Shown here: piece after piece, positions 7,686 through 55,414 of the stretch
Layout: every line of letters begins with the position of its first letter
How positions within the stretch are numbered: the first letter of the stretch is position 1
Assembly: GCA_019326865.1 (NCBI GenBank)
Contig: GCA_019326865.1_4101.1
DNA from: a phage
Direction: 5' to 3' (one strand)
Length of the DNA: 64,000 nucleotides
Notes under the pieces: generated by a model
Told to the model about the DNA's origin: nothing
Seen by the model: only the letters and a program-made list of their open reading frames with translations
Database searches by the model: none
Program-made: the position numbers and the translations under genes

Positions 7686-7711
7686 CACCCACCGATTCTT
7701 TGTGATATAAT
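7682..7711 (+). promoter_or_regulatory. sigma70-like promoter (TTGACA-18-TGATATAAT)
   Basis: -35 TTGACA 7682-7687; extended -10 TGATATAAT 7703-7711; 33 nt upstream of CDS 7745. Confidence 0.6.
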
Positions 7712-7744
7712 CCCTTTATATTAATTTTAAAGGGTTATAACACA

Positions 7745-8221
7745 ATGTCAAACGAACTCACATTCACCAATGCACAAAAGATAGCAAAAGACATTATCAG
7801 GGTTTATAAATTCCTTGCGAATGTTACTGAAGATTTTTTAATTGATAAAAATAAAGTTATTAAGCGAAATGGATACCTTTCCTTTATGGATGGGTTGCTC
7901 TATAGTTCAGATGAGTCAGCTTGTAGTATTAGAGTACTTGATACTGTACCAAGTGGTGATTTTATTTCATACCATTTTCCAAGTTCAGATAAGTTCAAAT
8001 ACTACAATAGTATTCTCATAGCAGAAGACTTTGATACGATTGTAATTAACACTGAAGAAGAGTTCTTCCAGTACAGTACTGTGTACCCAGAGAGGATTGT
8101 TTTCAGTTCAGTGATTTACACTACCCTTAAAAATGAACTAAATTCCGATAGTGATCATTTCTACTTGGACCTGAATAATATCGATTGTATTATTGAGTAC
8201 ATGGAGAAAAATGGTTTATGA
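7745..8221 (+). CDS. hypothetical protein, FamA
   Basis: 158 aa; 'EEEFFQYSTVYPE...HFYLDL'; sigma70-like promoter at 7682-7711. Confidence 0.7.
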   Translation: MSNELTFTNAQKIAKDIIRVYKFLANVTEDFLIDKNKVIKRNGYLSFMDGLLYSSDESACSIRVLDTVPSGDFISYHFPSSDKFKYYNSILIAEDFDTIVINTEEEFFQYSTVYPERIVFSSVIYTTLKNELNSDSDHFYLDLNNIDCIIEYMEKNGL

Positions 8222-8721
8222 TTACTACAGAATATGATTACAATAGTGTCCTTGAATTTGCAGAAAATATATATCGTATTGCAAAGGAGTTCAGAAGTCC
8301 TGAGCCGTTTGGTGGTATGTTCGAATACGATGAGTTTAGTTCATCAAAAGGAAGACTTGCATTTACTAATGGTAGAGGTAATCAAATCTACACAGAGTAC
8401 TTTGATGACAATGACTTTCATCACAAAGCCGAATACATTTCATATTGCCCTGGGTCTGATTTGAAGATTCATATTGAAAGAGATATAGAAAATGTATTTG
8501 TTCCATATACTGATTTAGTCTTCATGTCAGAGGAAATGTACTTTCAGGAATCATTGATTCATGATACAAAAGTACTTAATACTATATTATTATATGGTAC
8601 ACTACTTAATCATTACAAATACAATCAAAGATTCTTTTTAGATTTAGTAGTATACCATCAATGTGTGGATTATTTGAATGCAAAATCAGACAACAATTCA
8701 GTACATGACCGATGGTTCTGA
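8218..8721 (+). CDS. hypothetical protein, FamA
   Basis: 167 aa; 'SEEMYFQESLIHD...RFFLDL'; ATGA overlap. Confidence 0.65.
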   Translation: MITTEYDYNSVLEFAENIYRIAKEFRSPEPFGGMFEYDEFSSSKGRLAFTNGRGNQIYTEYFDDNDFHHKAEYISYCPGSDLKIHIERDIENVFVPYTDLVFMSEEMYFQESLIHDTKVLNTILLYGTLLNHYKYNQRFFLDLVVYHQCVDYLNAKSDNNSVHDRWF

Positions 8722-9040
8722 ATACTTTGTTTCAAGATATGTAATAAATCACAACCATTATGTAACCTATATTCCAGAGTACAATCAATTTTATATCCAG
8801 ATTTATCAACATAATGGAAAGAGAAATGATATATATTCAGAAATAAAAATCCCTGATTATAGTTCTTTATCAGAAGAGGAATTGTTTCAGGAGAGCACTA
8901 TCAGTACTGAAGATGTGTACGAAATAATGGAGTACCAGAAGGTACTTAAACATTTTCATGAAACAAATGATATACAAATAGATATTGTTAAACCGTGGTG
9001 TTACAATACATATGAGGTAAATTATGTTAGAAATGATTAA
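8678..9040 (+). CDS. hypothetical protein, FamA
   Basis: 120 aa; 'SEEELFQESTIS'; start uncertain (alt ATG 8705). Confidence 0.5.
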   Translation: MQNQTTIQYMTDGSEYFVSRYVINHNHYVTYIPEYNQFYIQIYQHNGKRNDIYSEIKIPDYSSLSEEELFQESTISTEDVYEIMEYQKVLKHFHETNDIQIDIVKPWCYNTYEVNYVRND

Positions 9041-9437
9041 AATTATGCAACGCTGTCTTATTGACAAATACGGGATATATGGATATCGTTTAAGTGCTCC
9101 TATTGACAAAAATAAAACAACCTATGTAAGTTATAATGCTGTACAAGGGTTTGATATATTCATTAGTACTAATTATCAAATCAAACAAGCTAAAGATGTG
9201 TCTATAATGACCCCTGATGAGTTATTTCAGTACAGCTTAGTTCTTCCTACATGTATCGATTTACAACGTCTAGGAGCGATACAGAAGGTTTTACGCGAAC
9301 ATAAAGTACAACCCAATAAAGTCACGCACATTCCAGAAACAATCTTCAAAACTATAGAAGTAGAAACCCCTGATTATATGTTAAGTGATGATGAATTCTA
9401 CGAGAAGCACTTCCCTGGTAAAGTTTGGAGAGACTAA
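9024..9437 (+). CDS. hypothetical protein, FamA
   Basis: 137 aa; GAGG RBS; 'TPDELFQYSLVLP'. Confidence 0.55.
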   Translation: MLEMIKIMQRCLIDKYGIYGYRLSAPIDKNKTTYVSYNAVQGFDIFISTNYQIKQAKDVSIMTPDELFQYSLVLPTCIDLQRLGAIQKVLREHKVQPNKVTHIPETIFKTIEVETPDYMLSDDEFYEKHFPGKVWRD

Positions 9438-9919
9438 TGAACCGAAAGTACAGAGAAACTATGAAGTTCGCTAAGGAGTGTTTAGAGACATTTGATTTCA
9501 TTTTCGATAACAAAGACTCACTTGGTCATTACTTCGTAATTACAAAAAAAGAAGATGAGAGATACAAGTGTCAAAGATTAGGATACAGTATTGAGTTATC
9601 CTTAATGAGTGATGGTATGATAAACTCCATATATGAATCTGGTAAGACAGATTACATTTCATTTAGATCATGGAGTGATAATATAATGTTCTTGAGTCCT
9701 AATGGAAGTAAATATCCATTCATTAATGATTTATCAGAAGAAAGTTACTTTCAAAACAGTTTAATTTATACAGAAAAAGAACTCAAAATGTTATTCATAA
9801 TGTCGTACTTTAAAAAGTACTGTAAATTTAAATCATTATCTTTTGAGATTTCTGCGATGAAAGTATTCATTAAAAATGTAAAAGAATTAAAGAGGGCTTT
9901 TAATGTACATAGAAAATGA
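9437..9919 (+). CDS. hypothetical protein, FamA
   Basis: ATG 9437 (TAATG overlap); 'SEESYFQNSLIYTEKELKMLFIMSYFK'. Confidence 0.65.
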   Translation: MNRKYRETMKFAKECLETFDFIFDNKDSLGHYFVITKKEDERYKCQRLGYSIELSLMSDGMINSIYESGKTDYISFRSWSDNIMFLSPNGSKYPFINDLSEESYFQNSLIYTEKELKMLFIMSYFKKYCKFKSLSFEISAMKVFIKNVKELKRAFNVHRK

Positions 9920-10445
9920 GAATGTAAAATGCATCACTGACATTTGTATAAAATTAATGAAAATTTTCATTAACCCAAAATACAAGACTCGTTCTTTACG
10001 TCATAATATTGATGAGCATTGTACCATTAATATCCTAGGTAGTATTCTTGATGTAAAATATGATGGTAAACTGTTATTCGGTATAAGAGAAGAGAAAATG
10101 GATGATGCATTCTTTTCTTGTAAAGATAAATTTGAACCTTCTGATTATAAAGTAATTATTCGTGATGATAGCATCTATATTAGTAGTGATTATTCAAATT
10201 ACTTCGATAAAATATACACTGAAAACGTTGATTACCATTATGAAATGCTAGATTTACCAGTAACAGACATTGATATGGAGAGAATCAAATTTTCATTATC
10301 AGATAATGAGTACTTAGGTATACAAACATATTATTCACTACAAGGAAAGATTCCACCTGCTATGTATATAAGGATTGAGATTGGTAATGTATTCAATGAT
10401 AAGGTTATATCAATTGCTGATAAAATATTGAGGGTTGAATTATGA
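9903..10445 (+). CDS. hypothetical protein
   Basis: 180 aa ORF in array, no clear FamA motif. Confidence 0.5.
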   Translation: MYIENENVKCITDICIKLMKIFINPKYKTRSLRHNIDEHCTINILGSILDVKYDGKLLFGIREEKMDDAFFSCKDKFEPSDYKVIIRDDSIYISSDYSNYFDKIYTENVDYHYEMLDLPVTDIDMERIKFSLSDNEYLGIQTYYSLQGKIPPAMYIRIEIGNVFNDKVISIADKILRVEL

Positions 10446-11005
10446 ATGGCCATGATTACCAATTCCATAGACTAGAATTTAGACACTGTGTTGCATATGC
10501 AAAAACATTAATGTGCATCATTGACACTCTTTCATCCGAACAATTTCGTAAGGATAATGATTTATTGCTGAAAAAAGGTCGTATAACATCATCCGATATC
10601 GGTATTGAACTATTTGTTGAAATCAGTGTTGATACCGGAGACAGTACAAGGGCTGGTTGTATAGGTCATATTGGCACACATTGTTTCACATGGAATCCAA
10701 ATACAAGTCAAGTTAGAATTGATTATAGAAATTCACGTTGGGTTGATCTTAGTACTGAATCAGATTTAGAATCAGTTATGTTCCAGCTAAGTTTAATTCA
10801 CGATCCTAATGAACTTCTTTATATTATTACTTTCAGTTATCTGTTACAAAACTACGATAGTCCATCAGGGTTTTTCATAGAATCAGATATAGATGAAATT
10901 ATGGAAGAGATTCCTAGTTTAAAGAATATTCTGGAAGAAAAAGATTTCTATAAGGACTTCAGAGATTTATACGACATGCACTTGGAGTTATTTAAGAATG
11001 GATAA
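10442..11005 (+). CDS. hypothetical protein, FamA
   Basis: 187 aa; 'LESVMFQLSLIHDPNELLYIITFSY'. Confidence 0.6.
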   Translation: MNGHDYQFHRLEFRHCVAYAKTLMCIIDTLSSEQFRKDNDLLLKKGRITSSDIGIELFVEISVDTGDSTRAGCIGHIGTHCFTWNPNTSQVRIDYRNSRWVDLSTESDLESVMFQLSLIHDPNELLYIITFSYLLQNYDSPSGFFIESDIDEIMEEIPSLKNILEEKDFYKDFRDLYDMHLELFKNG

Positions 11006-11516
11006 AGATGATATTCTAATTAGACTAGTTCAGAGTTTGATAAAGTTCGCAAATAATGATATCAATACATACAAAGTAGGTGATATTGAATTCAAATCAT
11101 TTGGTATGTACGGTGATGACGAAACATATTATGCTTCAATGAAATTTCAAGAATTTCACGAGATGTTAATATCGTTATCATACGAAGATGTTGACCCAAG
11201 ATGGAGTTCCAGTATTTCACTATCGAGAATGGTAATTCGTAGTAAGCATCGTTACATTTCGTCAAAGAATACTCCTAACTTGATTAATATTGTGTTGAAT
11301 GAAAATACAAACCCCCTATCTAAATATGATATCGTACCTTTAACCGATGAAGCAATTTTTCAATTGAGTACCATTTGTGATGAAGATGTGATATCATGTA
11401 TGAAAATTTATGAGAAAGTTGGGGGTGATATTCCCATGAACTATTACCTAACTATAGATGAAACGTATCTCCAAGATGATGTTCTGGCGTACATTGACAG
11501 TGTTTTACCAAAATAA
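10998..11516 (+). CDS. hypothetical protein, FamA
   Basis: 172 aa; 'TDEAIFQLSTICDEDV'; followed by terminator. Confidence 0.6.
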   Translation: MDKDDILIRLVQSLIKFANNDINTYKVGDIEFKSFGMYGDDETYYASMKFQEFHEMLISLSYEDVDPRWSSSISLSRMVIRSKHRYISSKNTPNLINIVLNENTNPLSKYDIVPLTDEAIFQLSTICDEDVISCMKIYEKVGGDIPMNYYLTIDETYLQDDVLAYIDSVLPK

Positions 11517-11540
11517 AGACCCGTTATGGGTCTTTTTGTG
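11516..11540 (+). terminator. rho-independent terminator
   Basis: GACCC-GTTAT-GGGTC hairpin then TTTTTGTGTTT. Confidence 0.7.
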
Positions 11541-11548
11541 TTTATGGC

Positions 11549-11577
11549 TTTACAAGAGCATTCAGGTGTGTTATACT
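11549..11577 (+). promoter_or_regulatory. T4-early-like promoter (TTTACA-17-TGTTATACT)
   Basis: between terminator 11516-11540 and CDS 11593. Confidence 0.45.
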
Positions 11578-11592
11578 TGATTTCAAATAGAG

Positions 11593-12168
11593 TTGGAGGA
11601 ATCTATGAGTACTGAATTAATTAAAGAAGTTACCTTACTTCTGAAGCATTGTTTTAAGTTCATTCCTGATACTGGTTCACGCCAGTACATTAAAGTTAAT
11701 GAGAAATATAACATCAATATCCTTGTATCTGAAACTGCGAGCAGCTATGCTAACATTGAGTTGGATTCTGAAGAAAAATATACAGTATTACAAATCATAG
11801 CAGATGTACAACGTAAACAAGATTATCGTTCTTCATTTGACAACGATTATCTGTGTGTTTGCTCAAACTTCAGTGAGAATAAAATTGTGTATAAGAATTT
11901 ATACACACATGAAGTGATTGATACATATAATTATAAAATTTCATCTGATGAATACAATGTGCTAATGTTCAACGCAAACCTTTTGTATGATGCCAGTACT
12001 GTACGCTGTTTAGAGTTAGCATATAAAATTCCAAAGATCATGGAAAGAAAAGATTTGATTCACTTTAAAACTATTTTAAAATACAGTACAAAAGAATTAG
12101 AAGATTTAGTACAGGCTCTTAAGAATTTCATTAATGAACATGTACCTGTTAAATTAGAGGACTTATAA
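11593..12168 (+). CDS. hypothetical protein
   Basis: 191 aa; GGAGG RBS; promoter-like element upstream. Confidence 0.55.
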   Translation: MEESMSTELIKEVTLLLKHCFKFIPDTGSRQYIKVNEKYNINILVSETASSYANIELDSEEKYTVLQIIADVQRKQDYRSSFDNDYLCVCSNFSENKIVYKNLYTHEVIDTYNYKISSDEYNVLMFNANLLYDASTVRCLELAYKIPKIMERKDLIHFKTILKYSTKELEDLVQALKNFINEHVPVKLEDL

Positions 12169-12752
12169 TGCAAGTTGAACACATTCAAATTATGAAATTG
12201 ATGCATGACATTGCGGAACTATCTGATAAGTACGATATTACTGTTCATGAGCCTATTGGAAATTATCGACTTAAAATTGAAAACAAATCACCACATCGTT
12301 TTGGTTCTGTAACTCTTGAATATTATAAAGTTTACGGTTATGAAACGGCAAAAAAAGGTTTCTGGGATACTATGGCAATGTATATCCGTACATCAAGACG
12401 TAGAGAACAAATCGGTTCAATCACGCCACATATGATATTTGTCAATGCTGTACACAGTGATATTAATCGAATTGTTGAATCTAATTTTGGTGACGTTGAG
12501 AACGATACATATTTAGAAATTCCACCAGAACTAGATCAATGTGAAGACATTCGTGAAGCATACATTTTCCAGAGATCATTACTTGACAACTTCAATGAGT
12601 TTGAGTACTTGATGCTTTGCTATGAAACTGCAAAAGCTATTAAGACTGGTGAATTGGTAATGTATAATAATTTCATTAACTGCAAATCCGATACACTTAA
12701 AGAGTTACACACTGCCATAAAAAACATCAAGGATACATATGAACGCTTATAG
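12168..12752 (+). CDS. hypothetical protein, FamA-like
   Basis: 194 aa; 'REAYIFQRSLLDN'. Confidence 0.55.
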   Translation: MQVEHIQIMKLMHDIAELSDKYDITVHEPIGNYRLKIENKSPHRFGSVTLEYYKVYGYETAKKGFWDTMAMYIRTSRRREQIGSITPHMIFVNAVHSDINRIVESNFGDVENDTYLEIPPELDQCEDIREAYIFQRSLLDNFNEFEYLMLCYETAKAIKTGELVMYNNFINCKSDTLKELHTAIKNIKDTYERL

Positions 12753-13317
12753 TTACATGACAGAACGTCATCAGATATTATATGATATCAGTACTAAAAT
12801 GTTATCAATTGTTAGTAGTGCGAAAGAAATTGAAAAACAATACCTCATCCGTGATGTAGCAATTTCATCTAAATGTTGGTCCAATGAATATTACGATCAT
12901 GGTATTCTTACTATTTCTGGGGCTAGAAATATTTGTATTGTAAAAAATAAGAAAAAATGCAATGAAGAGTGTGAGATTAGAACCGATATACAAATTAAGG
13001 ATGATGGAAGTTTTTCACACCACCCATTCCATATTAGTACTGTTGGTGTTTTATATAATATTAAAGTACTATTCGGTGATGAAGAGTATGTGTTAAAAGC
13101 TATCAATCCAGAATCAAGTACAGTTGAAGAAGAACTGTTCCAGATGAGCACGGTTATACCTGAAGAGGTTCTTAGTACTGTTATTTTTTGTAGTTTAATT
13201 TATCATGAATACAAAAAGAACCAGTTCGATTTCCACATGTTAGGAACGTACATCTTCAATAATTTGAGCGTAGATCGTTTAAAAGCATTAAATTCAGCGA
13301 TGGATAAGGTTCTATAA
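12739..13317 (+). CDS. hypothetical protein, FamA
   Basis: 192 aa; 'VEEELFQMSTVIPEEVL'. Confidence 0.6.
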   Translation: MNAYSYMTERHQILYDISTKMLSIVSSAKEIEKQYLIRDVAISSKCWSNEYYDHGILTISGARNICIVKNKKKCNEECEIRTDIQIKDDGSFSHHPFHISTVGVLYNIKVLFGDEEYVLKAINPESSTVEEELFQMSTVIPEEVLSTVIFCSLIYHEYKKNQFDFHMLGTYIFNNLSVDRLKALNSAMDKVL

Positions 13318-13745
13318 TGACAAGAGATGATTGTTTGTACATATGGGATGTAGTTGAAAATACACTTTCAAATCCAGAAAATTATAAAACACAAAAAAGA
13401 CAGCGACACAAAACATGGATAGATTTGTTCGTTGAGGACATACATGCAGTGACTATTTGGGATTCACCGAGGGCATCAGCATCTACTCTATTGGACAATG
13501 AATGCATTGATTGCATTAATTCCACTTTTCATCTACACGGTTCTACAATTTTTGGTACATTTCTGGATATTGAAAATAAAGATGATATTGATTCACTTGC
13601 GTTACAATATCAAGTACTGTATAATACTAAATTAATTTACGATTTAGTACTAGCTTCTTATGTGTATAAATTAATGATGAAATATAATCACATTTCAGTA
13701 TCAGTTTATACCAAGGATATTCTTTCATTAAGAGACAAAACATGA
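13317..13745 (+). CDS. hypothetical protein
   Basis: 142 aa ORF, ATGA-type junctions. Confidence 0.5.
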   Translation: MTRDDCLYIWDVVENTLSNPENYKTQKRQRHKTWIDLFVEDIHAVTIWDSPRASASTLLDNECIDCINSTFHLHGSTIFGTFLDIENKDDIDSLALQYQVLYNTKLIYDLVLASYVYKLMMKYNHISVSVYTKDILSLRDKT

Positions 13746-14251
13746 GTTTATTAAATGCACGAGAATTAGTTGAGATGTATGAGATCTTATCTTCATATAA
13801 AAATTCCCCAAAAGATGTAATTCTCAACAAAAAGTTCCATGTCAATGTTGATCATATGAAAAATATAGATATGATTTCTTTAGTGGAAAGTAGTAAATCG
13901 GGTCTTGAGCGTGATATCATGCGTTTGATTTATATTACCAAACCATCATATACTAATGATAGTTCAATTAGTAATGAGACATTTTTGTACACTCCTTATA
14001 CTGATTGTACTTTAGTTTCAGTGTCTAATCAGAAACAAGATACTATCCAATTCATCAATACCAGTACTGATAACATTGAAGAAAATGAATTCCAAAACAA
14101 TACATTAAGTTCATGTAGTAGTGTTATAACCTTTATGTCATATCTGTGGTCAATAAAATCAAATGCAATTGTATATAGTTCTAATTACACACAAGATAGT
14201 ATTGTTGAATCATATAAAGCTCTGAAGGAATACTATGAAAATAACAAATGA
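13742..14251 (+). CDS. hypothetical protein, FamA-like
   Basis: 169 aa; 'MSLLNARELVEMYE', 'IEENEFQNNTLSS'. Confidence 0.55.
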   Translation: MSLLNARELVEMYEILSSYKNSPKDVILNKKFHVNVDHMKNIDMISLVESSKSGLERDIMRLIYITKPSYTNDSSISNETFLYTPYTDCTLVSVSNQKQDTIQFINTSTDNIEENEFQNNTLSSCSSVITFMSYLWSIKSNAIVYSSNYTQDSIVESYKALKEYYENNK

Positions 14252-14816
14252 TTTTTTTAAATGTTTAGTACACCCTATGCTGAGTGTTATGAAAAAATTA
14301 CAGAATCTACCGGAAGACAACGATTACAAGTTTAATCGTTTTGATTCAGATGTATTTTGTATTGAAATTGAAATGAATAATAATCGTAATTTGCATTTAA
14401 AATTCAAAGAATCGTCAAGTCCGTATTACAACTTTGATATGAATTTTAAAATAGATACTGACATTGAAGAAAACGTAATATCAAATCATACTAGCAAAAA
14501 TGGTTTTAAGCATAGAACTACTATGTACAATAATAAAAATAGTATTATATCTAAATGGTTTCACCAATTCACCAAAATTGGTGAAATTGAATATAGTGAT
14601 TTTGGTGAAGAGCAATACTTTCAGTTGAGTACAATTCATGAACTTCCACCATATGATTATGTTAAAACATGGTTTGATATTCATAATATAATTGATGATG
14701 CAATCAAACTTCCATTTGGGGTATCAATATCATATACTGCTCCTAAAACATTTGTTTTTACGGAAGATATGATTATGAAAAAGATATGGGCAATTATCCC
14801 ACTTATGATGGATTAA
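14235..14816 (+). CDS. hypothetical protein, FamA
   Basis: 193 aa; 'GEEQYFQLSTIHELPPYDY'; terminator downstream. Confidence 0.6.
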   Translation: MKITNDFFKCLVHPMLSVMKKLQNLPEDNDYKFNRFDSDVFCIEIEMNNNRNLHLKFKESSSPYYNFDMNFKIDTDIEENVISNHTSKNGFKHRTTMYNNKNSIISKWFHQFTKIGEIEYSDFGEEQYFQLSTIHELPPYDYVKTWFDIHNIIDDAIKLPFGVSISYTAPKTFVFTEDMIMKKIWAIIPLMMD

Positions 14817-14820
14817 ATTT

Positions 14821-14848
14821 ATACCAGGGGTTGACTCTGGTATTTTTG
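14821..14848 (+). terminator. rho-independent terminator
   Basis: ATACCAG...CTGGTAT stem, 9-nt loop, TTTT. Confidence 0.55.
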
Positions 14849-14877
14849 TATGATACATTATCCTAAAGGAGAATTTT

Positions 14878-15429
14878 ATGAACTACAATCATGATCTTTT
14901 TACATTATGTGCATCAAAATGTGTTGATGGTTGGGCAGATAAAATCAATACCATAATTCATCGATATCTCGTCTTTAGTTCCCGTGCACGAAGTGAGGGG
15001 GCTATGGATTTCAAATATACACTATCTATTGATGGTGTAACTATCCATGCAGACGAAGAACGTCTGAGCATTAATTTGTATGATTCCTGTGTATTTGCTA
15101 TTCACCAAAAGATGGGGAAAGGATGGGGTTGTAATAACATTAACTCCAAAGCTATCTTTTGGGTTGGTCACCATCAGACAGTACTTGATCCTTCAATTAA
15201 ATCTAATCTTTTATCCGATAATATGGTTTATGATTTATTGTACTCCGAAGAACAACATTTTCAATTAAGTACATTGCATGATCTGGCACAGTACGAGGAT
15301 TGTTACAAAACATTAGAACTATGCCATTCCCTTGAACTCAAAGATAAATTGATACAAGTTTACCCTTCATTCTTTCATGAAGAAGTACAATGCACACTAG
15401 AACATATTTTATATGGGTACGACAAATGA
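14878..15429 (+). CDS. hypothetical protein, FamA
   Basis: 183 aa; AGGAG RBS; 'SEEQHFQLSTLHDLAQYED'. Confidence 0.6.
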   Translation: MNYNHDLFTLCASKCVDGWADKINTIIHRYLVFSSRARSEGAMDFKYTLSIDGVTIHADEERLSINLYDSCVFAIHQKMGKGWGCNNINSKAIFWVGHHQTVLDPSIKSNLLSDNMVYDLLYSEEQHFQLSTLHDLAQYEDCYKTLELCHSLELKDKLIQVYPSFFHEEVQCTLEHILYGYDK

Positions 15430-16028
15430 GAAAAAGTTATCAAAAAACTATTGACCTAATTAGAGAAGTTATTAAAGTGGCTCCTGGTGCGATAGCATTC
15501 AAGAAGTCCCTATATAAAAAGTATGGCTCCATGTCAAATATGTGTTGTCAAAAGAAACGTAGTAAATTCACTACGCAGTACTGGCATGATTCTATTATTC
15601 TTAGTAATGAACATCATCGTATTTTAACAATCGAATCAGTAGATAATCAATATGGTGAAGGAATGATTTGTGTACCTGATTATGATGAAATTAACTTCAA
15701 CTGCGGTGATTTTGAAACAACATTATTACTTCACGAGGGTTATCCAGAAGGTGATGTATTAGCTGAGTACAATCCAAAAACTAAAATTCTCAAAAGAGGA
15801 ATCCAGTTCACTATTAATAACAAAGATGATGTTGAAGCAGCACTAATGCAACTGAGTACAAGTGAACCTATTACTATTAGTGTAGAAGAGTTATGGGGAA
15901 TTATTTCAGTACTTAATGAGTGCTACAAAGTAAAATCATTACGTAATCACACCCTTATATTGCATACTAATATAGCACATATAAAATGTAAGCACATTCA
16001 AGAAATGGCGGTTCCAGATGGACTTTAA
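15426..16028 (+). CDS. hypothetical protein
   Basis: ATGA overlap start at 15426; weak motif 'AALMQLSTSEP'. Confidence 0.5.
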   Translation: MRKSYQKTIDLIREVIKVAPGAIAFKKSLYKKYGSMSNMCCQKKRSKFTTQYWHDSIILSNEHHRILTIESVDNQYGEGMICVPDYDEINFNCGDFETTLLLHEGYPEGDVLAEYNPKTKILKRGIQFTINNKDDVEAALMQLSTSEPITISVEELWGIISVLNECYKVKSLRNHTLILHTNIAHIKCKHIQEMAVPDGL

Positions 16029-16611
16029 AGAAATTGAAAGTAAATTAAAGTACTTCAAAGATATCAAACTTCTTTGGGAAAAGTATAAAATTGATTACAA
16101 ATTCAGTGATGATGAGACAATAAAATCCATTGATATTAATATCAAAATCAAGTTCAAGAATAATAATTATGGTGAAGTAAGCTTAAATCATACTGGTGTA
16201 TCACTCAGGGACTATGATGGTTCAACACTCGCATATTTCGACTTCATTCCAGAACCAGGTGAAACACTACTTAGTGAGATAAATTCCTATGATATGGAAA
16301 TATTCGGCGGGAATCCGTTACTGTTCCGACTGTCCGAAGAGTGGAGTGAAGAATACTACACTTACAAAGATGGTGTAGTACTTGACATTCATGGAGAAGT
16401 TGTGAATGACTTGGAAGAACGTTTGTTCCAAGAATTGTGTGTTTCAAATACTTCATATGCATACAATCATATCCTTGACATGTTTGATTTATATAGTAAA
16501 ATAGATGCTGAAATGAATGCACATGGTATTCATTACCTTACAATTAACGACTATGCACAACTCGAAACCGCTGTGACAGCATTGTCTAAAGTACTGAAAA
16601 TAGGAACGTAA
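16018..16611 (+). CDS. hypothetical protein, FamA-like
   Basis: 197 aa; 'EERLFQELCVSN'. Confidence 0.5.
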   Translation: MDFKEIESKLKYFKDIKLLWEKYKIDYKFSDDETIKSIDINIKIKFKNNNYGEVSLNHTGVSLRDYDGSTLAYFDFIPEPGETLLSEINSYDMEIFGGNPLLFRLSEEWSEEYYTYKDGVVLDIHGEVVNDLEERLFQELCVSNTSYAYNHILDMFDLYSKIDAEMNAHGIHYLTINDYAQLETAVTALSKVLKIGT

Positions 16612-16612
16612 T

Positions 16613-17026
16613 ATGAAACTGTACCATGCGAGTACTGTAAAAATTGATAACTTTTATATCCCGTATGGTGGTCTACATATGGGAGGCAAACACAGTGCTT
16701 TGGAAGCTGCATTACGCAAGCTGAGAAGCCCACTGAACGTCGTAGACGCATGTACAGTATACTTGCATACCTTAGAAGTTGATGTTGATAACGTGCTTCT
16801 GTGTGAAGATTTAGGCAGTGATGATGAGTGGCGTTCACTTATTGAGAATTGCACTGTTCAAGGATATGATGCTGTTCAGTACAAAAATGATTACGAGCCA
16901 GACAATGTTCCTAGTTATATGATTTGGGATGCATCTAAAGTTCGTATAGTTGAAGTTGATGCTATGCATATGGATGATGCTGAAATGATTATCGAAGATT
17001 TTCTTGATGAATATGAAGGTGTATAA
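16613..17026 (+). CDS. hypothetical protein (locally GC-richer)
   Basis: 137 aa ORF; composition visibly GC-richer than neighbours. Confidence 0.5.
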   Translation: MKLYHASTVKIDNFYIPYGGLHMGGKHSALEAALRKLRSPLNVVDACTVYLHTLEVDVDNVLLCEDLGSDDEWRSLIENCTVQGYDAVQYKNDYEPDNVPSYMIWDASKVRIVEVDAMHMDDAEMIIEDFLDEYEGV

Positions 17027-17562
17027 TGTCTGACCCGATGGTAGCACTGGCACGTACTAAATTACTATTAAAGATTGGTGAGATATTCACAGATCTTCTG
17101 TGCAATAAAATTGATATTACCGATCTAGATATTAAGCAACCGTGGGAAGTGACTATGTTCTCGGCGTTCCACCGATTGTCATATAAAGGTGAAAGTGTTC
17201 TTGATTTTAACCCCAAAGCAAAATTCATAGATTATGCCGCGTTGTACCGAGCGTTGCACAAAAATAGTTATTCAGGTTGTATAACCAATAACTTTGAACG
17301 AATTCAAGTTCAAACAGCATCACATGAGTTCAATGATTTACTCTATCCAGAATTTAATCTAACTGAAGAATTACTATTTCAGTACTCGTTAATTCTTACA
17401 AATCTCGAAACGCTAGAGTACTACAAAGAGTTAGTAGATATTTTTATGAATACACGACTTTCAAAAGATATTGTGATATTCTGGTATACAGAGCATATTA
17501 CAGAGGAATTGCTTAATGAATTTCTTCTAAATATGACAGCTATAAAGGAGAAGTTATGTTAG
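17026..17562 (+). CDS. hypothetical protein, FamA
   Basis: 178 aa; 'TEELLFQYSLILTN'. Confidence 0.55.
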   Translation: MSDPMVALARTKLLLKIGEIFTDLLCNKIDITDLDIKQPWEVTMFSAFHRLSYKGESVLDFNPKAKFIDYAALYRALHKNSYSGCITNNFERIQVQTASHEFNDLLYPEFNLTEELLFQYSLILTNLETLEYYKELVDIFMNTRLSKDIVIFWYTEHITEELLNEFLLNMTAIKEKLC

Positions 17563-18029
17563 ATATTTTAGGAAACATCGATACTGCAAATTATTTTATC
17601 CAAGACGCACTATTTAATACACTACAAAAAGGTTTAGAAGTTCGTTACAACGTATATCAAGGTGATGGATATTTTGTTGATATTCTAGAAACACGTAAAA
17701 ATACATTTAATGTTAACATTACGACGTTTGGAAGACAGAACATTGCACGAATTTTAGTAAGTAAAGATGAAATAGTACTGAGATACAGTGCTAAGTTTAT
17801 GTTGACGTACAAGAAAAAAACAGACATGTTCAGTACTAATTTATTTGATGAACCATTTGACCTTGTAGATATTGAAGCTACTTTCTTTACTCAAAGTACT
17901 ATGGTAAAATACACTGATGTTCAATTTTCATCAGACGTTATGTCTGAAACATTACAAATGATCAAGGTATTATTTTATGCATTTGAGCAATTCAGAGAAG
18001 AAAGAAACAAGGTTAACAACCACAGATGA
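17556..18029 (+). CDS. hypothetical protein
   Basis: 157 aa; degenerate motif 'ATFFTQSTMV'. Confidence 0.5.
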   Translation: MLDILGNIDTANYFIQDALFNTLQKGLEVRYNVYQGDGYFVDILETRKNTFNVNITTFGRQNIARILVSKDEIVLRYSAKFMLTYKKKTDMFSTNLFDEPFDLVDIEATFFTQSTMVKYTDVQFSSDVMSETLQMIKVLFYAFEQFREERNKVNNHR

Positions 18030-18390
18030 ACTAATAGAGGCGATCACTAAGGAGTCAAAATACCACAAAGGGATTCGTCTATATTTTATAGATCTTGGTT
18101 CAATGGACGGCATATACATTTATGGTTCACAATCTTTATCTTATGATGTAATGCCAAAAAAATATGTAAAAATCTTTTTAGGGTCAAATAAGAAAACTTT
18201 CTTGACAATTAATGATAAAAACGTTATTATGAATTCTTTGGGTCATGATAAAGTGAAAATTGATCTAAACACGCTGGATGATATTGATTTTTTTCAATAC
18301 GAATGTTTAGGTGTTGACTTACATGGAATCAGTAGTGATATGATAAAATCATTAATCAAATATTTCGAAGGCGTTCATAAATGTATCTAA
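17977..18390 (+). CDS. hypothetical protein
   Basis: 137 aa; 'DIDFFQYECLG'; 53 nt overlap, start uncertain. Confidence 0.45.
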   Translation: MHLSNSEKKETRLTTTDELIEAITKESKYHKGIRLYFIDLGSMDGIYIYGSQSLSYDVMPKKYVKIFLGSNKKTFLTINDKNVIMNSLGHDKVKIDLNTLDDIDFFQYECLGVDLHGISSDMIKSLIKYFEGVHKCI

Positions 18391-18887
18391 CTAAATCGAT
18401 GAAAAATTCATTTGATAAAATCAAGAGTTGTCTTGATGGAGAGAATATTACAAGTGTTACACAATCTGCTGACCAAATTCAATGCAGTTCAAGTGATTGT
18501 ACTGTTATTTTGGGTTTACATAGTCTGCGTTTGTCAATAGTAAATAATATTGACAACACTGCTATTGTAATCACACCGTGCAATATTCAAAATGAGAATG
18601 GTGTATATCTTCATCACATGGGAACCGCATTTTATATTTTCAATACAAACAATACACTCGAAACAATCGTTAAGGAATATAATACACTTAACATTGATCC
18701 TGGTGAGTTATTTCAGATGAGTACGTTGTATTCATGTGATTTTACTGATACCTCACGTATTTTACCATTTTTCTTGGAAATTTTAAAGAAAATGGATAAT
18801 TTAAATCGTCAATACAATAAAAAAATGGTTCCAGAAGCTATATTAAATATTACTGATGCTATGGAAAAATATAAAGCAGTGCCTTAA
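18381..18887 (+). CDS. hypothetical protein, FamA
   Basis: 168 aa; 'DPGELFQMSTLYS'. Confidence 0.55.
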   Translation: MYLTKSMKNSFDKIKSCLDGENITSVTQSADQIQCSSSDCTVILGLHSLRLSIVNNIDNTAIVITPCNIQNENGVYLHHMGTAFYIFNTNNTLETIVKEYNTLNIDPGELFQMSTLYSCDFTDTSRILPFFLEILKKMDNLNRQYNKKMVPEAILNITDAMEKYKAVP

Positions 18888-44019: not shown

Positions 44020-44020
44020 T

Positions 44021-47151: not shown

Positions 47152-49824
47152 TTACGCACTGATTGTTACAGTTGCAGTATCTTTTTTATTACCATCCACA
47201 GTAGTCACTGTAATGATTACAGAACCTTCTTCTAGAGCAGTTACTAATCCATCATCACTAATAGATACTTTAGTAGGTTCATCTGCACTATAAGTTACTG
47301 ATTTGTTAGTTGCTTTAGCTGGAAGAACTTCAGGAACTAGTTGAACTGTTTTAGTTCCTGATAGTGAAAGTTCAGTAGTTTTAGGTGTTAAACTAACACT
47401 GGATACTGGAACTGGAATATTAACGATTACTGATGTTTGACCAGTAACATCACTACCATCAGCGGCAGTAGCGATAATATTTGCAGTACCATTAGTTAGT
47501 GCAGTTACGATACCAGTATTAGCATCTACTTTAGCAATTTCTGGAGCACTGGATGACCAAATTACTTTTTTATTGGTTGCATTACTTGGGGTAATTGCAG
47601 CAGTCATCTGTTTAGTTGCATTCAATGTAGTCAAAGTTTGATCTTTAGGAGTTACATCAATTGCAGTTACTGGCACTGGAATATTAACAGTAATAACACC
47701 TTGACCTGTTTTACCACTTCCATCAGCAGCAGTTGCGATAATGTTTGCAGAACCGTTAGTTAACGCAGTTACAACACCAGTACTAGCATCTACTTTCGCT
47801 ACAGCAGGTTTACTGGAAGACCATGTTACAGATTTATTTGTTGCGTTAGTTGGAAGAACTTCAGCAGCCATTGCTTGAGTTGCGTTAACAGCAGTCAATG
47901 TTTTAGTTGCTGGAGTAACATTAATAGATGCGACTGGAACTGGAATTGCTACAGTTACCGCACATTTTGCAGTTTTTGCTCCATCAGCAGTTGTTACTGT
48001 GATATCAGCAGTGCCATTTGCTACAGCAGTGATTAAACCAGTTGGACTAACAGTTGCCACTCCATCAGCAGAAGTACTATAAGTTACTGCTTTGTTGGTA
48101 GCATTAGGTGGTAGTACAGTTGGTGTTAGTTGTTGAGTATCACCGACTGAAGTTAATTTAGCACTTGTTGGAGATACTGATACACTTGCAACAGGAACTG
48201 GAATATTAACATTTACCACGCAAACTTTAGTAAATCCACCATCAGATGTGGTTGCTGTAATATTTGCAGTACCGTTTGCAACAGCAGTGATTAAACCAGT
48301 TGGACTTACCGTTGCGACACCCTCAGCAGAAGTAGTGTATGAAATATCTTTACGACGAGCGTTATCTGGAATAACAGATGCAGTTAGTTGTTGAGTAGCA
48401 CCTACAGAAGTTAGGGTTGCTGTCAACGGAGTCATATTAATACCAGTTACTGGGATCGTTACATCAATCACTGATTCAGCAGTTTTAGCACCATCATCAG
48501 TGGTAACAGTAATAGTTGTAGTACCGTTATCAACCGAAGTTACTAGACCAGTATTACTAACTTTTGCCACGTCTGGATATGAAGAAACATATGAAACTGC
48601 TTTATTGGATGCAGTTGTAGGAGCAACGGTTGTTTCTAATTGTTTAGTATCACCTAATGTTGAGAATGTATAAGTACTAGGAGTCATAGTGACACCAGAT
48701 ACAGGTGTTTTCACAGTGATAGTAGTAGTATCAGTTTTAGCACCATCTTCGGTTGTTGCTGTAATCACCACTGTACCGTTAGCAACACCAGTTACTAGAC
48801 CAGAAGTAGGGTTAACAGTTGCTATATCAGGTGTTGCTGAAGACCACGTGACGTTTTTATTAGTTGCATCATCAGGAGATATTGTAGCAGTTAATTGTTG
48901 AGTACCGCCAACGTTAATTGTTGCAGTTTTAGGAGAAACAACAACACCACTAACTGGAGTTGTTACAGTAACAGTACATTTTGAAACAAATATGCCATCA
49001 ACAGTAGTTGCAATTACATCAGTACTACCATCTGCAACACCAGTTACCATACCAGTTGGACTTACAGTTGCGACGCGTGGTATACTAGATAACCAATTAA
49101 CACGTTTATCACTTGCATCATCGGGTGATACGGTAGCTGTTAGTTGTTGAGTTTTACCAACACTAAGAGATAGAGTTGAAGGAGAAACAACAACACCACT
49201 AACTGGAGTTGTTACGGTAAATGCACAAACATCCGTGAAACCACCATCATGAGTAGTAACTGTTACATTTGCGTTACCATTAGCACGGGCAATTGCTAAA
49301 CCAGTTTGAGCATCAACTTCAACTATTGTTGGAGCAGAGGAACTATAACTTACTGTTTTATCATTTGCATAATCTGGATCAATTGTAGCTGATAGCTGTT
49401 GTGTACTACCAACTTTAAGTGCTACTACTTTAGGTGAAATAATTACACCATCAACTGGAGTAGTATAATCACGTTTAACCACACGACCATTGTTCAATTT
49501 AATAATACGACCCATATAAAGAGTAGTATATCCTTTACTAATCCCATCATCTACATAAATCATGAATGAATTGTCTTGAACCATATTAATTGCGTCTACT
49601 GGTTTAACGGAATTTGGAATGTCGATACCACGGGTATCATACCAACACATGGAAACTTTGTAATAGATATCACCATTATCATTTATGAGATCATAAACGT
49701 TACTGGAACGTTGACGGTTAATATATAAAGTTTCGGTTAACACCTTACCATCGATTTTAGCGACAGAAACTTTAATACCACCAATACCAAATGGCAATTT
49801 ACCTTCACTAGATATTGCTTTCAT
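47152..49824 (-). CDS. virion surface/decoration protein with nine Big_2 Ig-like repeats (Hoc-like or fibre-associated candidate)
   Basis: 890 aa; nine copies of 'NATNK.V.WSSS.P..A.V...G.VTA...G.A.I.AT..DG' pattern; only minus-strand gene; TATAAATA upstream. Confidence 0.8.
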   Translation of the reverse strand: MKAISSEGKLPFGIGGIKVSVAKIDGKVLTETLYINRQRSSNVYDLINDNGDIYYKVSMCWYDTRGIDIPNSVKPVDAINMVQDNSFMIYVDDGISKGYTTLYMGRIIKLNNGRVVKRDYTTPVDGVIISPKVVALKVGSTQQLSATIDPDYANDKTVSYSSSAPTIVEVDAQTGLAIARANGNANVTVTTHDGGFTDVCAFTVTTPVSGVVVSPSTLSLSVGKTQQLTATVSPDDASDKRVNWLSSIPRVATVSPTGMVTGVADGSTDVIATTVDGIFVSKCTVTVTTPVSGVVVSPKTATINVGGTQQLTATISPDDATNKNVTWSSATPDIATVNPTSGLVTGVANGTVVITATTEDGAKTDTTTITVKTPVSGVTMTPSTYTFSTLGDTKQLETTVAPTTASNKAVSYVSSYPDVAKVSNTGLVTSVDNGTTTITVTTDDGAKTAESVIDVTIPVTGINMTPLTATLTSVGATQQLTASVIPDNARRKDISYTTSAEGVATVSPTGLITAVANGTANITATTSDGGFTKVCVVNVNIPVPVASVSVSPTSAKLTSVGDTQQLTPTVLPPNATNKAVTYSTSADGVATVSPTGLITAVANGTADITVTTADGAKTAKCAVTVAIPVPVASINVTPATKTLTAVNATQAMAAEVLPTNATNKSVTWSSSKPAVAKVDASTGVVTALTNGSANIIATAADGSGKTGQGVITVNIPVPVTAIDVTPKDQTLTTLNATKQMTAAITPSNATNKKVIWSSSAPEIAKVDANTGIVTALTNGTANIIATAADGSDVTGQTSVIVNIPVPVSSVSLTPKTTELSLSGTKTVQLVPEVLPAKATNKSVTYSADEPTKVSISDDGLVTALEEGSVIITVTTVDGNKKDTATVTISA
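47155..49452 (-). repeat. intragenic tandem repeats encoding nine Big_2 Ig-like domains
   Basis: about 255 nt coding unit repeated nine times within CDS 47152-49824. Confidence 0.7.
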
Positions 49825-49860: not shown

Positions 49861-49868
49861 TATTTATA
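49861..49868 (-). promoter_or_regulatory. T4-type late promoter motif TATAAATA (minus strand)
   Basis: plus-strand 'tatttata' 37-44 nt upstream of minus-strand start 49824; AAGGAAAG RBS between. Confidence 0.5.
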
Positions 49869-53257: not shown

Positions 53258-53578
53258 ATGTCTTACTCAATGTTTTTGGATGATATCCGTGATGCAAATC
53301 TATATTATCCAAACCAAGATATGGTGGTATGTCGTGACTTTAAAAGTGCATGTGAATATGTTATTGAAAATGGAATTCCAGCATTTGTATCATTCGACCA
53401 TGACTTGGGTGATGTGAGCGAAGACGAAAAGACTGGATATTCTTTTGCTAAGTTTCTTATTGATTATATGTTTGATAATAATATTAAAGAACCGTTTGAG
53501 TACTTTGTTCACAGTAGTAATCCTGTTGGTAAAATTAATATTGAAACATACTTAAACAATGGGTTTAACGCATTATGA
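53258..53578 (+). CDS. hypothetical protein (possible receiver-like domain)
   Basis: 106 aa; acidic 'FLDDIRD' and 'SFDHDLGD' pattern; assignment tentative. Confidence 0.45.
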   Translation: MSYSMFLDDIRDANLYYPNQDMVVCRDFKSACEYVIENGIPAFVSFDHDLGDVSEDEKTGYSFAKFLIDYMFDNNIKEPFEYFVHSSNPVGKINIETYLNNGFNAL

Positions 53579-53877
53579 TTCAAACACACATCAAAAGTCT
53601 TATTTGTACTGTTCTGTTAGGTGTAGGTGTTCTTTGGTTCGGATATTATCACGAGAACACTAAGCGTACTAACATTCACTACAATACCGCAGAAGTTGTT
53701 AGTTTAGGGCAATGTAGTGAGTCAAAATGTGCATTTACGTACAAAACCAGTAATGGTGAAATACGTAATGGACTATCAAGAGAACCAGTTTCGATTGGTC
53801 AACTTGTTTACCAGGAGTGCTGGGAAGAAAAGGTTCGAGGTTCACGTTGCTATGTTGAATACGAACCAAATATGTAA
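53575..53877 (+). CDS. small membrane-anchored protein
   Basis: 100 aa; N-terminal TM 'LICTVLLGVGVLWFGYY'. Confidence 0.5.
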   Translation: MIQTHIKSLICTVLLGVGVLWFGYYHENTKRTNIHYNTAEVVSLGQCSESKCAFTYKTSNGEIRNGLSREPVSIGQLVYQECWEEKVRGSRCYVEYEPNM

Positions 53878-53937
53878 TAATCCAAGTCAATAACATTAGT
53901 CGAGTACAAGGATGTACTCATAACTCAAGGATGTTTT

Positions 53938-55377
53938 ATGAAAAAATATACAATTGACACAAACGTACTACTATCTGATCCAAATGCGTCTGTTGCTTTT
54001 GATGGTGCTGCAATCATTCTACCATTTACAGTACTGGAAGAATTGGATTCGATTAAGAGTCGCAATGTTGATGTTTCACGTGATGCTCGTGTTGCGATTC
54101 GTAACATTGAAGCAATTATTGCAGAGGCATCACATAATGAGATTAGTTGTACTGGTGTTAATATTGCTGATGTTCATACCAATATGAATCCTGATAGCAA
54201 ATTGTTTGTTATTACAACCGAAGAAGCTGAGGCACTAATTCGTACTAAAGGTTCAGACGAGAAAGTTCAAACCCTTCTTAAAAGTACTGTACCTGATGAT
54301 AAAATTATTCTGGTTGCTTTAGCAACCGAATCAGTACTGGTAACTCGTGATATCAACATGCGTATCAAAGCACTAAGTTATGGTGTCGAGGTACAAGACT
54401 ATCGTCATGATATTGTTATTGGTGATAGTGATTTGATGCACATTGGTCAACATCATTTGGAACTCAATTTTTGGGATGTATATAGCAATTTAGCAAATAC
54501 AAATATTAAAACTGAACAAATTGGTCGTCGATTGTATCATTACATTCCTAAAAGCTTGATTGGTCATTTACTTCCACAAAATCTATGCATTGGTGATTAT
54601 CTATATGATGATGCTGATGTATTATTTGTATATGAAGGCCAATCAGCCATTGAGGAAGATGATGGCACACTAACACCAGAAGATATTTTGGTATTCCAAG
54701 ACATTGGTCAATCTGTAGCTTTGCGTGCTAAAGTATGGGATATTAAAGCAAAGAATATTCAACAAGCACTTGCAATCAACAGTATTCTCGATCCTGATGT
54801 ACACCTAACAGTGCTGCTAGGTTCTGCTGGAACTGGCAAAACATTAATTACGATTGCTACTGCACTAGAGTTAGTACTGGAAAAACGCAAATACGACCGT
54901 ATTATCTTCTCTAAAACACAAGATTCACAGTTTGAAGATATAGGATTCTTGCCAGGTTCTGAGACAGAGAAAGTTATCCCATTCTGTGGACCTGCAATTG
55001 ATGCTCTTGAGTATCTTCATAAAGATGATGTATCACCACAAGGTAGCATCGAAGAGATTCTCAAACGTAACGTGATGCAATTTAAAGCATTGAACTTTAT
55101 TCGTGGTCGTTCTTTTGCCAATACAATTCTAATTGTGGATGAAGCACAGAACTTAACACCAGCCCAGTTAAAAACTGTCTTGACAAGAGCCGGAGAAAAC
55201 TGTAAAGTAATCATACTTGGTAACCTAGCACAGATTGATAACAAGTTTATCAGTCCAGTAAACAGTGGTTTGACATATGTAACTGAAAAATTCAAGGATT
55301 GGAGTGGTTGTCGTATCATTGAATTAGAAGGTGTTGTTCGTTCACCACTTGCTGAATTTGCTGAAGAAAATATGTAA
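53938..55377 (+). CDS. phoH: PhoH-like ATPase with N-terminal PIN domain
   Basis: PIN 'YTIDTNVLLSDP'; Walker A 'GSAGTGKT'; Walker B 'LIVDEAQN'. Confidence 0.85.
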   Translation: MKKYTIDTNVLLSDPNASVAFDGAAIILPFTVLEELDSIKSRNVDVSRDARVAIRNIEAIIAEASHNEISCTGVNIADVHTNMNPDSKLFVITTEEAEALIRTKGSDEKVQTLLKSTVPDDKIILVALATESVLVTRDINMRIKALSYGVEVQDYRHDIVIGDSDLMHIGQHHLELNFWDVYSNLANTNIKTEQIGRRLYHYIPKSLIGHLLPQNLCIGDYLYDDADVLFVYEGQSAIEEDDGTLTPEDILVFQDIGQSVALRAKVWDIKAKNIQQALAINSILDPDVHLTVLLGSAGTGKTLITIATALELVLEKRKYDRIIFSKTQDSQFEDIGFLPGSETEKVIPFCGPAIDALEYLHKDDVSPQGSIEEILKRNVMQFKALNFIRGRSFANTILIVDEAQNLTPAQLKTVLTRAGENCKVIILGNLAQIDNKFISPVNSGLTYVTEKFKDWSGCRIIELEGVVRSPLAEFAEENM

Positions 55378-55405
55378 TATAATATGGGATGTACTGTCCC
55401 ATACA

Positions 55406-55414
55406 TGATATAAT
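55406..55414 (+). promoter_or_regulatory. extended -10 element TGATATAAT
   Basis: 31 nt upstream of CDS 55446. Confidence 0.35.

Follow-up and report, generated by a model that had tools for sequence, protein, structure and literature searches.

We followed up a recurring extended -10 element, the 9-mer TGATATAAT, in a 64,000-nucleotide (nt) stretch of phage DNA (contig GCA_019326865.1_4101.1; hereafter the window). The intergenic copies of the 9-mer probably supply the -10 of sigma-70-type promoters that form a phage-specific class, and alignment of the sites gives a unit longer than the 9-mer: a 7-mer in the -35 region, TG(A/G)GAC(A/G), then 13 nt (sometimes 14), then TGnTATAAT. We read these units as promoters because they are exclusive to the coding strand, keep a fixed spacing to the starts of genes and RNAs, are conserved where their flanks have been replaced, and precede 30 of the 32 members of a family of large structured RNAs, one of which appears to be encoded in the window. 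The window has 31-35% G+C, nearly all of its open reading frames (ORFs) lie on the + strand, and only ~4% of it (~3 kb) is intergenic. Its DNA identity, 97% to Escherichia phage UE-S1 and ~90% to G17, 121Q, PBECO4 and phAPEC6, places it in Asteriusvirus, RaK2-like jumbo coliphages with a genome of ~350 kb.

The excess of the motif is real and far above chance. Exact TGATATAAT occurs 11 times in the window, compared with 3.81 +/- 1.91 times in dinucleotide shuffles, and none of 100 shuffles reached 11. The copies are split 10:1 in favor of the + strand, while an order-3 Markov model gives an expectation of 2.4 per strand. Seven + strand copies are intergenic, against 0.09 expected when sequence is shuffled within each gap, and in six cases a + strand start codon follows 40-43 nt after the T of TG. 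A sequence-only reading of this DNA had listed seven copies (7703, 20756, 22464, 28546, 36319, 44041 and 55406); all seven are exact and on the + strand, and four others had been missed (18999, 24440 and 26389 on the + strand, 36331 on the - strand).

We considered whether the 9-mers are functionless products of an AT-rich genome (32% G+C). TATAAT by itself is indeed common in the window and symmetric between strands (74 versus 76), matches to the generic sigma-70 consensus occur at the level of shuffled sequence, and the variants TG[C/G/T]TATAAT (seven on the + strand, three on the - strand) are all intragenic according to a crude gene model. Two or three of the 11 exact copies, all intragenic, are probably due to chance. 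Those at 24440 and 26389 probably belong here, because they are intragenic, have no correctly spaced 7-mer, and fit in number the expectation per strand. For the intergenic copies, chance is already refuted by the counts above, by the distance to start codons, and by the strand bias of the full pattern and its retention beside replaced flanks and at 30 RNA loci, both described below. As a general account of the motif, we regard it as having almost no prospect of being right.

At every site the TATAAT is exact and a TG stands one base upstream of it, giving TGATATAAT at eight sites that we consider probable (the seven above and 18999) and TGCTATAAT at 32435, a probable member of the class without the exact 9-mer. 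The 7-mer, in the form TG(A/G)(A/G)AC(A/G), is found within one mismatch at six of the eight probable sites. It is separated from the TG by 13 nt at six sites, by 14 nt at 55406 and 38587, and by 15 nt at 7703. Searching the window with a relaxed pattern, [A/G][A/G]AC[A/G]-N13-14-TGnTAnnnT, we found eight matches on the + strand and one on the - strand, where simulations give 2.3 +/- 1.1 per strand; the relaxed pattern adds two intragenic candidates, 32415-32443 and 38567-38595. The sequence-only reading had pointed to -35-like hexamers, and both TTGACA at 7682 (spacer 18) and TTGGAC/TGGACA at 44021/44022 are present. An upstream element thus does accompany the -10, but it is the phage-specific TG(A/G)GAC(A/G), with canonical TTGACA only at 7703. 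By orientation, spacing and conservation, the sites behave as the proposed extended -10 promoters; what needed amending was the unit, which is the 7-mer, 13 nt and TGnTATAAT and not the exact 9-mer. By its sequence, the 7703 promoter combines features of the canonical class with those of the TGATATAAT class. Relative to the layout of 'Promoter 1' in phages CBB and GAP32 (see below), the 7-mer of 55406 is displaced by 1 nt and the TTGACA of 7703 lies 2 nt further upstream. The sites and associated features are listed in Table 1.

Table 1. Putative promoters, predicted RNA features and short transcription units in the window, and loci of RNA homologues. Arrows run from a promoter to its downstream terminator-like hairpin.
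Feature	Position	Strand	Remarks
Putative promoter, canonical TTGACA, 18-nt spacer to TG-extended TATAAT	7682-7711	+	Gene start 7745; conserved in 121Q and ECO103
Probable internal promoter, tTGGACG-N13-TGATATAAT	18979-19007	+	68 nt into ORF 18931-19404; conserved in 121Q; function undecided
Putative promoter, gTGAACA-N13-TGATATAAT	20736-20764	+	Gene start 20797; bracketed by inverted repeat TGTGAACAT/ATGTTCACA
Putative promoter of structured RNA gene, TGAGACA-N13-TGATATAAT	22444-22472	+	Counterpart in GAP32, CBB, Yen9-04 and several uncultivated virus genomes (UViGs)
Predicted unannotated structured RNA gene, ~520 nt	22479-23013	+	96 of 108 consensus pairs form in the window copy
Predicted hairpin, 11 pairs and U-run, terminator-like	22475-22507	+	At about the predicted transcription start; stem kept by compensatory changes
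Intragenic TGATATAAT, no correctly spaced 7-mer	24440-24448	+	Probably chance
Intragenic TGATATAAT, no correctly spaced 7-mer	26389-26397	+	Probably chance
Putative promoter, cGGGACA-N13-TGATATAAT	28526-28554	+	Gene start 28586
Candidate internal promoter, TGGAACA-N13-TGCTATAAT, no exact 9-mer	32415-32443	+	Inside RnlA-type RNA ligase gene; also in ECO103
Putative promoter, TGAGACA-N13-TGATATAAT	36299-36339	+	Gene start 36359
Candidate internal promoter, GGGACA-N14-TGATATAGT	38567-38595	+	Inside Ser/Thr phosphatase gene; exact TGATATAAT in 121Q and ECO103
Putative promoter of clpP-like protease gene, tTGGACA-N13-TGATATAAT	44021-44049	+	Gene start 44084
Putative promoter, GGGATG(T)-N14/13-TGATATAAT	55386-55414	+	GGGACA in 121Q; one-gene unit 55446-55634, 62 amino acids (aa)
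Predicted short unit	18999 -> 19516-19536		
Predicted short unit, two genes	20756 -> 21546-21574		
Predicted short unit, two genes	28546 -> 29625-29644		
Predicted short unit, one 62-aa gene	55406 -> 55738-55759		
RNA homologue	L010:47470-48060		
RNA homologue	L016:327-816		
RNA homologue	L055:1750-2222		
RNA homologue	L011:421-944		
RNA homologue	L012:420-912		
RNA homologue	L125:3026-2468	-	
RNA homologue	L122:6316-6861		And others

The sites can also be followed in related genomes. All of the window sites are retained in 121Q. A genome-wide motif search had been proposed along with the sequence-only reading, and we carried it out on the complete genome of a relative, ECO103 4-12-1 (ECO103; 351,992 bp, assembled from eight pieces). 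There, the main coding strand carries 40 copies of TGATATAAT and the opposite strand seven. Of the 40, 21 have a -35-like element at the right spacing; of the seven, none does. All 19 matches to the full pattern (7-mer, 13 or 14 nt, TGnTATAAT) lie on the main coding strand.

The clpP locus shows the element retained beside replaced flanks. In phages Ec-M-J and JNE01 a different gene lies upstream of clpP, and the sequence becomes similar to that of the window again precisely at TGATATAAT (query position 441); the promoter is present as TAGACA-N13-TGATATAAT, with a spacer unrelated to that of the window. In Alcyoneusvirus (Klebsiella relatives), the locus instead carries TTGACT-N18-(TGt)TACAAT, so that the promoter is common in position only, while in CBB and GAP32 there is no intergenic gap at this position and the promoter is absent. 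The mosaic junction between the window and Ec-M-J or JNE01, at 44020-44049, recalls the promoter-associated shuffling of modules in T4-type phages.

Such a junction raises the question of whether the element is primarily a promoter, or is instead the operator of a regulator or a recombination cassette by which gene modules are shuffled. In T4-type phages, stem-loops with early promoters do shuffle gene modules, the homology of Asteriusvirus lineages at clpP resumes exactly at TGATATAAT, and inverted repeats overlap 20756, 36319 and 55406. We nevertheless consider this explanation very improbable. The place of the inverted repeat varies from site to site, and that at 36319 is not conserved in 121Q; the junction is compatible with a promoter; and strict orientation along the coding strand and a set distance to starts are needed by a promoter but not by an operator or a recombination site.

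The inverted repeats at or near the promoters lie at 20734-20772, 36319-36339, 55385-55400 and 7712-7735. The third is a small hairpin, GGGAT-GTACT-GTCCC, that spans the -35 region of 55406, and the last, CCCTTTA...TAAAGGG, falls within the leader of 7703. At 36319, the -10 is the left half of a palindrome, TGATATAAT-TTG-ATTATATCA, which is the source of the lone - strand copy of the 9-mer (36331-36339). Because the right arm of this palindrome is degraded in 121Q, the - strand copy is probably not a promoter.

The sequence-only reading had the copies marking blocks of genes. Six of them do stand shortly before start codons, but no ORF follows the promoter at 22464, which precedes what appears to be a structured RNA gene. 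The ORF-poor stretch behind it, 680 nt long, is conserved at ~70% DNA identity in CBB, in GAP32 and in phages that infect Yersinia, Erwinia, Serratia, Xanthomonas, Salmonella and Klebsiella aerogenes. Most of it lacks annotation in these relatives, and it matches four to five places per genome. Scanning IMG/VR with sequence patterns, and then searching with nhmmer, we found 32 distinct full-length members of the RNA family, ~450-590 nt in size, in at least 12 jumbo-phage genomes. Phage 121Q has four copies (at ~90, 193, 247 and 327 kb), as does ECO103, and several other RaK2-like genomes have three or more. Four further members came from scanning bacterial genomes, including copies in chromosomal prophages of Enterobacter chinensis and Enterobacteriaceae RIT714, which lie between an integrase and a CI-like repressor, and two of 5,426 E. 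coli genomes contain a partial match in an integrase-bearing island. In the RNA gene of UE-S1 (23459-24027), the closest relative of the window, ~55 nt of the 5' part are duplicated in tandem, with profile positions 109-163 matched twice. In ECO103, copy C and its TGATATAAT promoter (333205-333233) lie directly downstream of the phage's sigma-70-family gene (332205-333170, in the orientation of the window). An unannotated 1.2-kb gap in CBB (329405-330631), beside genes for a transcriptional regulator and a sigma factor, gave no match to the RNA profile.

Covariation strongly supports the predicted structure. We aligned 29 sequences and folded the alignment with RNAalifold, obtaining a consensus of 108 pairs in 23 helices. 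Of all alignment cells in paired positions, 93.6% form a standard pair, compared with 37-47% when the partners are slid by one to three columns and 79.5% in column shuffles. Pairs changed on both sides number 61 (24-30 slid, 40.5 shuffled) and cells changed on both sides number 416 (49-74 slid, 116.4 shuffled), and none of 500 column shuffles reached any of the observed figures. Conserved G-U pairs settle the strand of the RNA as +. Single-sequence folding gives a z-score of only -2.35. The bacterial members, which were not used for structure prediction, form 80-83 of ~102 scorable pairs, against 38% in the slid control. In the window copy, long-range helices are predicted, for example between 22688-22692 and 22939-22943. 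The hairpin and U-run at the very start of the window copy are a 5' insertion found only in its paralogue type; in most paralogues the body of the RNA begins at the predicted transcription start.

The promoter and the RNA are found together throughout the family. In 30 of the 32 members, the 7-mer-N13(14)-TGnTATAAT unit ends 1-45 nt before the conserved body; of the two exceptions, one has its -10 overlapped by the start of the model and the other has TCCTATAAT. The promoter before the type-A RNA gene is in the same place in the window, 121Q, GAP32, CBB, Yen9-04 and several UViGs. The most conserved targets of the promoter class could well be this undescribed family of large structured RNAs, with the TGATATAAT-type promoter travelling along as a cassette. 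Because the four copies in one genome share no neighboring protein family and one copy has no co-directional gene after it, these appear to be stand-alone RNA genes and not simply leaders; for the same reason we rejected the idea of a protein partner.

We compared the RNA with known families. Against Rfam 15, whose models include RNase P, tmRNA, group I and group II introns, GOLLD, ROOL and HEARO, the window has no match at the gathering score and nothing relevant at E <= 10 in 22400-23200; nine homologous RNA loci have no match at E <= 1, and the prophage loci none at the gathering score. ARAGORN found no transfer RNA or transfer-messenger RNA. Text searches of the literature for conserved strings of the RNA returned nothing relevant, and the Asteriusvirus papers on fEgEco12 and Sharanji contain no discussion of non-coding RNA. 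By eye, parts of the RNA resemble RNase P J18/2-P4 and the CUGAUGA core of the hammerhead, but neither model matches and the predicted pairings do not fit. The RNA is similar to GOLLD and ROOL in being several hundred nt long, with many helices, and in standing alone as a phage or prophage gene; it matches the Rfam model of neither, and the likeness is one of kind only. Jumbo phage PA5oct, a distant relative, has four RNA-seq-defined non-coding RNAs (ncRNAs) (Lood et al. 2020, PMC7318152). These are abundant, unannotated and 236-619 nt long, but have no sequence similarity to the window family, and we rejected homology after nhmmer with all filters off gave no match. Possible roles include a trans-acting ribozyme or a scaffold for a ribonucleoprotein, an anti-defence RNA, and a cis-acting origin or primer RNA that acts at several genome positions. 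The main gain from following the 9-mer is a strongly covarying RNA of ~520 nt, which sits in unannotated gaps of jumbo phages from Xanthomonas to Escherichia and of prophages and can now be found both by its sequence and by its promoter. If our reading is true, the family is a new class of large phage RNA.

The sequence-only reading had also proposed that the promoters delimit transcription units, which by themselves they do not appear to do. Terminator-like hairpins are two to three times more common in the window than in shuffles (13 versus 5.5, 16 versus 6.5 and 18 versus 7.2), yet six of the eight promoters have none within 60 nt upstream. The exceptions are 20756, which has an opposite-strand hairpin ~10 nt before it, and 55406, whose own -35 region is overlapped by a short hairpin. 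Most promoters of the class stand directly behind the stop codon of the preceding gene. Given this position and the lack of upstream terminators, transcription from upstream should read through, and the promoters are therefore better described, as far as their placement indicates, as internal or booster promoters in co-directional gene arrays than as unit boundaries. They would add transcription to upstream read-through within these long arrays. It is separate downstream terminators that close units: four promoters, together with intrinsic terminators downstream, would define short units that are presumably highly expressed (Table 1). Several genes located behind terminators (among them 11593, 14878, 21592, 25947 and 29663) have no promoter of the class.

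As promoters, these elements are not new: to judge from the sequences, the window class corresponds, in Asteriusvirus, to one that had been predicted earlier for a sister genus. The CBB genome paper predicts three promoter classes, namely RpoD-like with an UP-like element, 'divergent RpoD-like' ('Promoter 1', also seen in GAP32), in which TGAAACG replaces TTGACA, and T4-late-like with ATAAATA (Buttimer et al. 2017, PMC5259590). Table S6 of that paper lists 18 sites of the form TGAAAC(G/A)-N13-TG(G/C/A)TATAAT. The prediction was made in silico, using MEME within 100 bp upstream of ORFs, and the sites lie mainly before DNA-synthesis genes. 'Promoter 1' has the same design as the window class, with a 7-mer at -35, exactly 13 nt and TGnTATAAT, and occurs in the same phage group. 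The promoters between GAP32_066 and GAP32_067 and between CBB_70 and CBB_71 stand before the RNA gene and correspond to 22464; because the MEME search was confined to 100 bp upstream of ORFs, the link to RNA genes went unseen. The two classes differ in the 7-mer, which is TGAAAC(G/A) or TGGAACG in CBB but TGAGACA, (T/C)GGGACA or TTGGACA in the window, and in the base after the TG, for which CBB mostly has G or C and the window nearly always A.

Other known promoters resemble the window class in part. The extended -10 of E. coli has a TG one base upstream of TATAAT and is used by sigma-70 holoenzyme without a good -35. The window promoters share its TGn, consensus TATAAT and weak or partial -35, but differ in carrying a conserved phage-specific 7-mer at fixed spacing in the -35 region. 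T4 middle promoters combine a MotA box, (a/t)(a/t)TGCTT(t/c)A centred at -30, with a sigma-70 -10, and need AsiA and MotA. They too join a host-type -10, often TG-extended, to a conserved non-canonical upstream element, and both phage types have a second, canonical early class in the same genome. However, no window site has a MotA box; the upstream element is TG(A/G)GAC(A/G) instead and, unlike the MotA box, still resembles the GACA part of a -35. PA5oct, which depends on host RNA polymerase, also uses sigma-70-like promoters, with TTGAC and TATAATA around RNA-seq-defined start sites (PMC7318152). A full-text search of the literature for the 9-mer returned irrelevant papers only. The RaK2 genome paper does not discuss promoters, the word 'promoter' is absent from the Asteriusvirus papers on fEgEco12, Sharanji, UE-S1, JP4 and phAPEC6, and in GenBank the UE-S1 and G17 entries mark ribosome-binding sites and terminators but lack promoter annotation.

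It is likely that host sigma-70 alone reads the class, the polymerase that the sequence-only reading had named. The -10 is a perfect E. coli extended -10; the sigma-like protein of the phage lacks the residues that would read it; and the copies of the RNA in prophages, in bacteria without a jumbo phage, have the same architecture, aTGAAATG-N13-TCCTATACT. Host RNA polymerase with sigma-70 would bind TATAAT through region 2.4 and the TG through region 3.0, with GAC(A) of the 7-mer making a partial -35 contact at most. Transcription would start ~7 nt after the -10, leaving leaders of ~25-28 nt before six protein genes, and the predicted start at 22464 would be the 5' end of one structured RNA gene. 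The motif, where its copies lie, which way they point and how far they are conserved are direct observations; the sigma factor, start sites, timing and strength are inferred from them.

Several observations weigh against this reading. Three sites (18999, 32435 and 38587) are intragenic and uncertain in function. Scans of the window for the generic consensus, TTGACA-N16-18-TATAAT, found matches at the level of shuffles (118 versus 129.5, 135 versus 116.5 and 92 versus 98.3); such scans are therefore unusable for calling promoters here, and the argument rests on the specific architecture. The 7-mer departs systematically from TTGACA, as would be expected if a phage factor read it: TT is absent from every Asteriusvirus member except 7703, and the Mimasvirus form is TGAAACG. 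At 22464, a terminator-like hairpin and U-run follow immediately after the promoter, which is odd for a productive one. ECO103 encodes, outside the window region, a homologue of CBB_513, a sigma-70-family protein (34% identity, E 1.7e-55). Finally, our literature search found no Asteriusvirus transcriptome, and start sites and sigma dependence are predictions.

These points suggest an alternative, a middle-type class that needs a phage factor, with either a phage sigma replacing sigma-70 or a MotA-like activator binding the 7-mer while host sigma-70 reads the extended -10. The second option would resemble T4, where promoters with an extended -10 keep working once region 4 of sigma has been remodelled. 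The 7-mer TG(A/G)(A/G)AC(A/G) is conserved across genera and is unlike TTGACA, a separate canonical class (41 versus 1 by strand in ECO103) clusters in regions of tiny ORFs and suggests two temporal classes, and the CBB equivalent lies mainly before DNA-synthesis genes (PMC5259590). The phage also encodes its own sigma-70-family protein; one in RaK2-like phages is noted as well in the fEgEco12 and Sharanji papers and in a review. In RpoD, W433/W434, Q437/T440 and H455/E458 are the residues that wedge or read the -10 and read the TG. An ungapped, high-confidence alignment of the ECO103 protein with RpoD shows W433/W434 replaced by S/S, Q437/T440 by M/Y and H455/E458 by Y/V. Lacking these residues, it is an unlikely reader of TGnTATAAT and is unlikely to replace the host sigma at a host-type -10, which sharpens the question of its own target. 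Moreover, the prophage RNA copies keep the 7-mer-N13 arrangement without any jumbo-phage factor, and the 7-mer can be read as a -35 that matches the consensus at four of six positions, either as GACA at a spacing of 16 nt or as xTGA.A at a spacing of 18 nt. Our search, which was aimed at the sigma-70-family gene only, identified no MotA or AsiA homologue. On balance, we think it unlikely that the class depends on a phage factor, and prefer recognition by host sigma-70.

The second class in ECO103, TTGAC(A/T)-N16-18-TA(T/C)AAT, is promoter-like, with 41 members on the coding strand and one on the opposite strand. The class is clustered in tiny-ORF regions at ~30-50 kb and 294-350 kb (in the orientation of the window), and the window has a site at 13613. 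Many of its copies read TTGACA-N9-AGTACTG-TATAAT, and AGTACTGTATAAT occurs 17 times on the + strand and twice on the - strand. This arrangement links the probable early promoters to an excess of the palindrome AGTACT, which occurs 165 times in the window (21.5 expected) and 919 times in ECO103 (119 expected); CAGTACTG occurs 43 times in the window (0.6 expected). The excess is 6.5- to 11-fold in every RaK2-like piece that we checked (121Q, CBB, GAP32, Yen9-04, Serratia BF and UViG loci). In the window, AGTACT is evenly spread, falls in all three reading frames and has only six intergenic copies, and is therefore a signal at the level of DNA. The 6-bp palindromes CAGCTG, AGGCCT, AGCGCT, ACCGGT and CGATCG are absent.

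The window also contains one candidate late promoter. The T4 late-promoter consensus, TATAAATA, occurs just once in the window, both strands considered, at 49861-49868 on the - strand; the one gene on that strand (47152-49824) starts 44 nt downstream of it. This gene encodes an 890-aa protein with nine Big_2 immunoglobulin-like repeats, and the protein is probably structural. Together with the architecture of the TGATATAAT class and the canonical class, the T4-late-like TATAAATA makes up a three-class transcription map, open to testing, of jumbo coliphages that are candidates for therapy. The proteins encoded just downstream of the TGATATAAT-class promoters are, in Pfam and PHROGs searches, ClpP and otherwise of 'unknown function'. 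In the first part of the window (1-19000), similarly sized + strand ORFs (~140-200 aa) follow one another back to back in a long run that has a single promoter of the class, at 7703, and two strong terminators, at 11515-11535 and 14821-14843.

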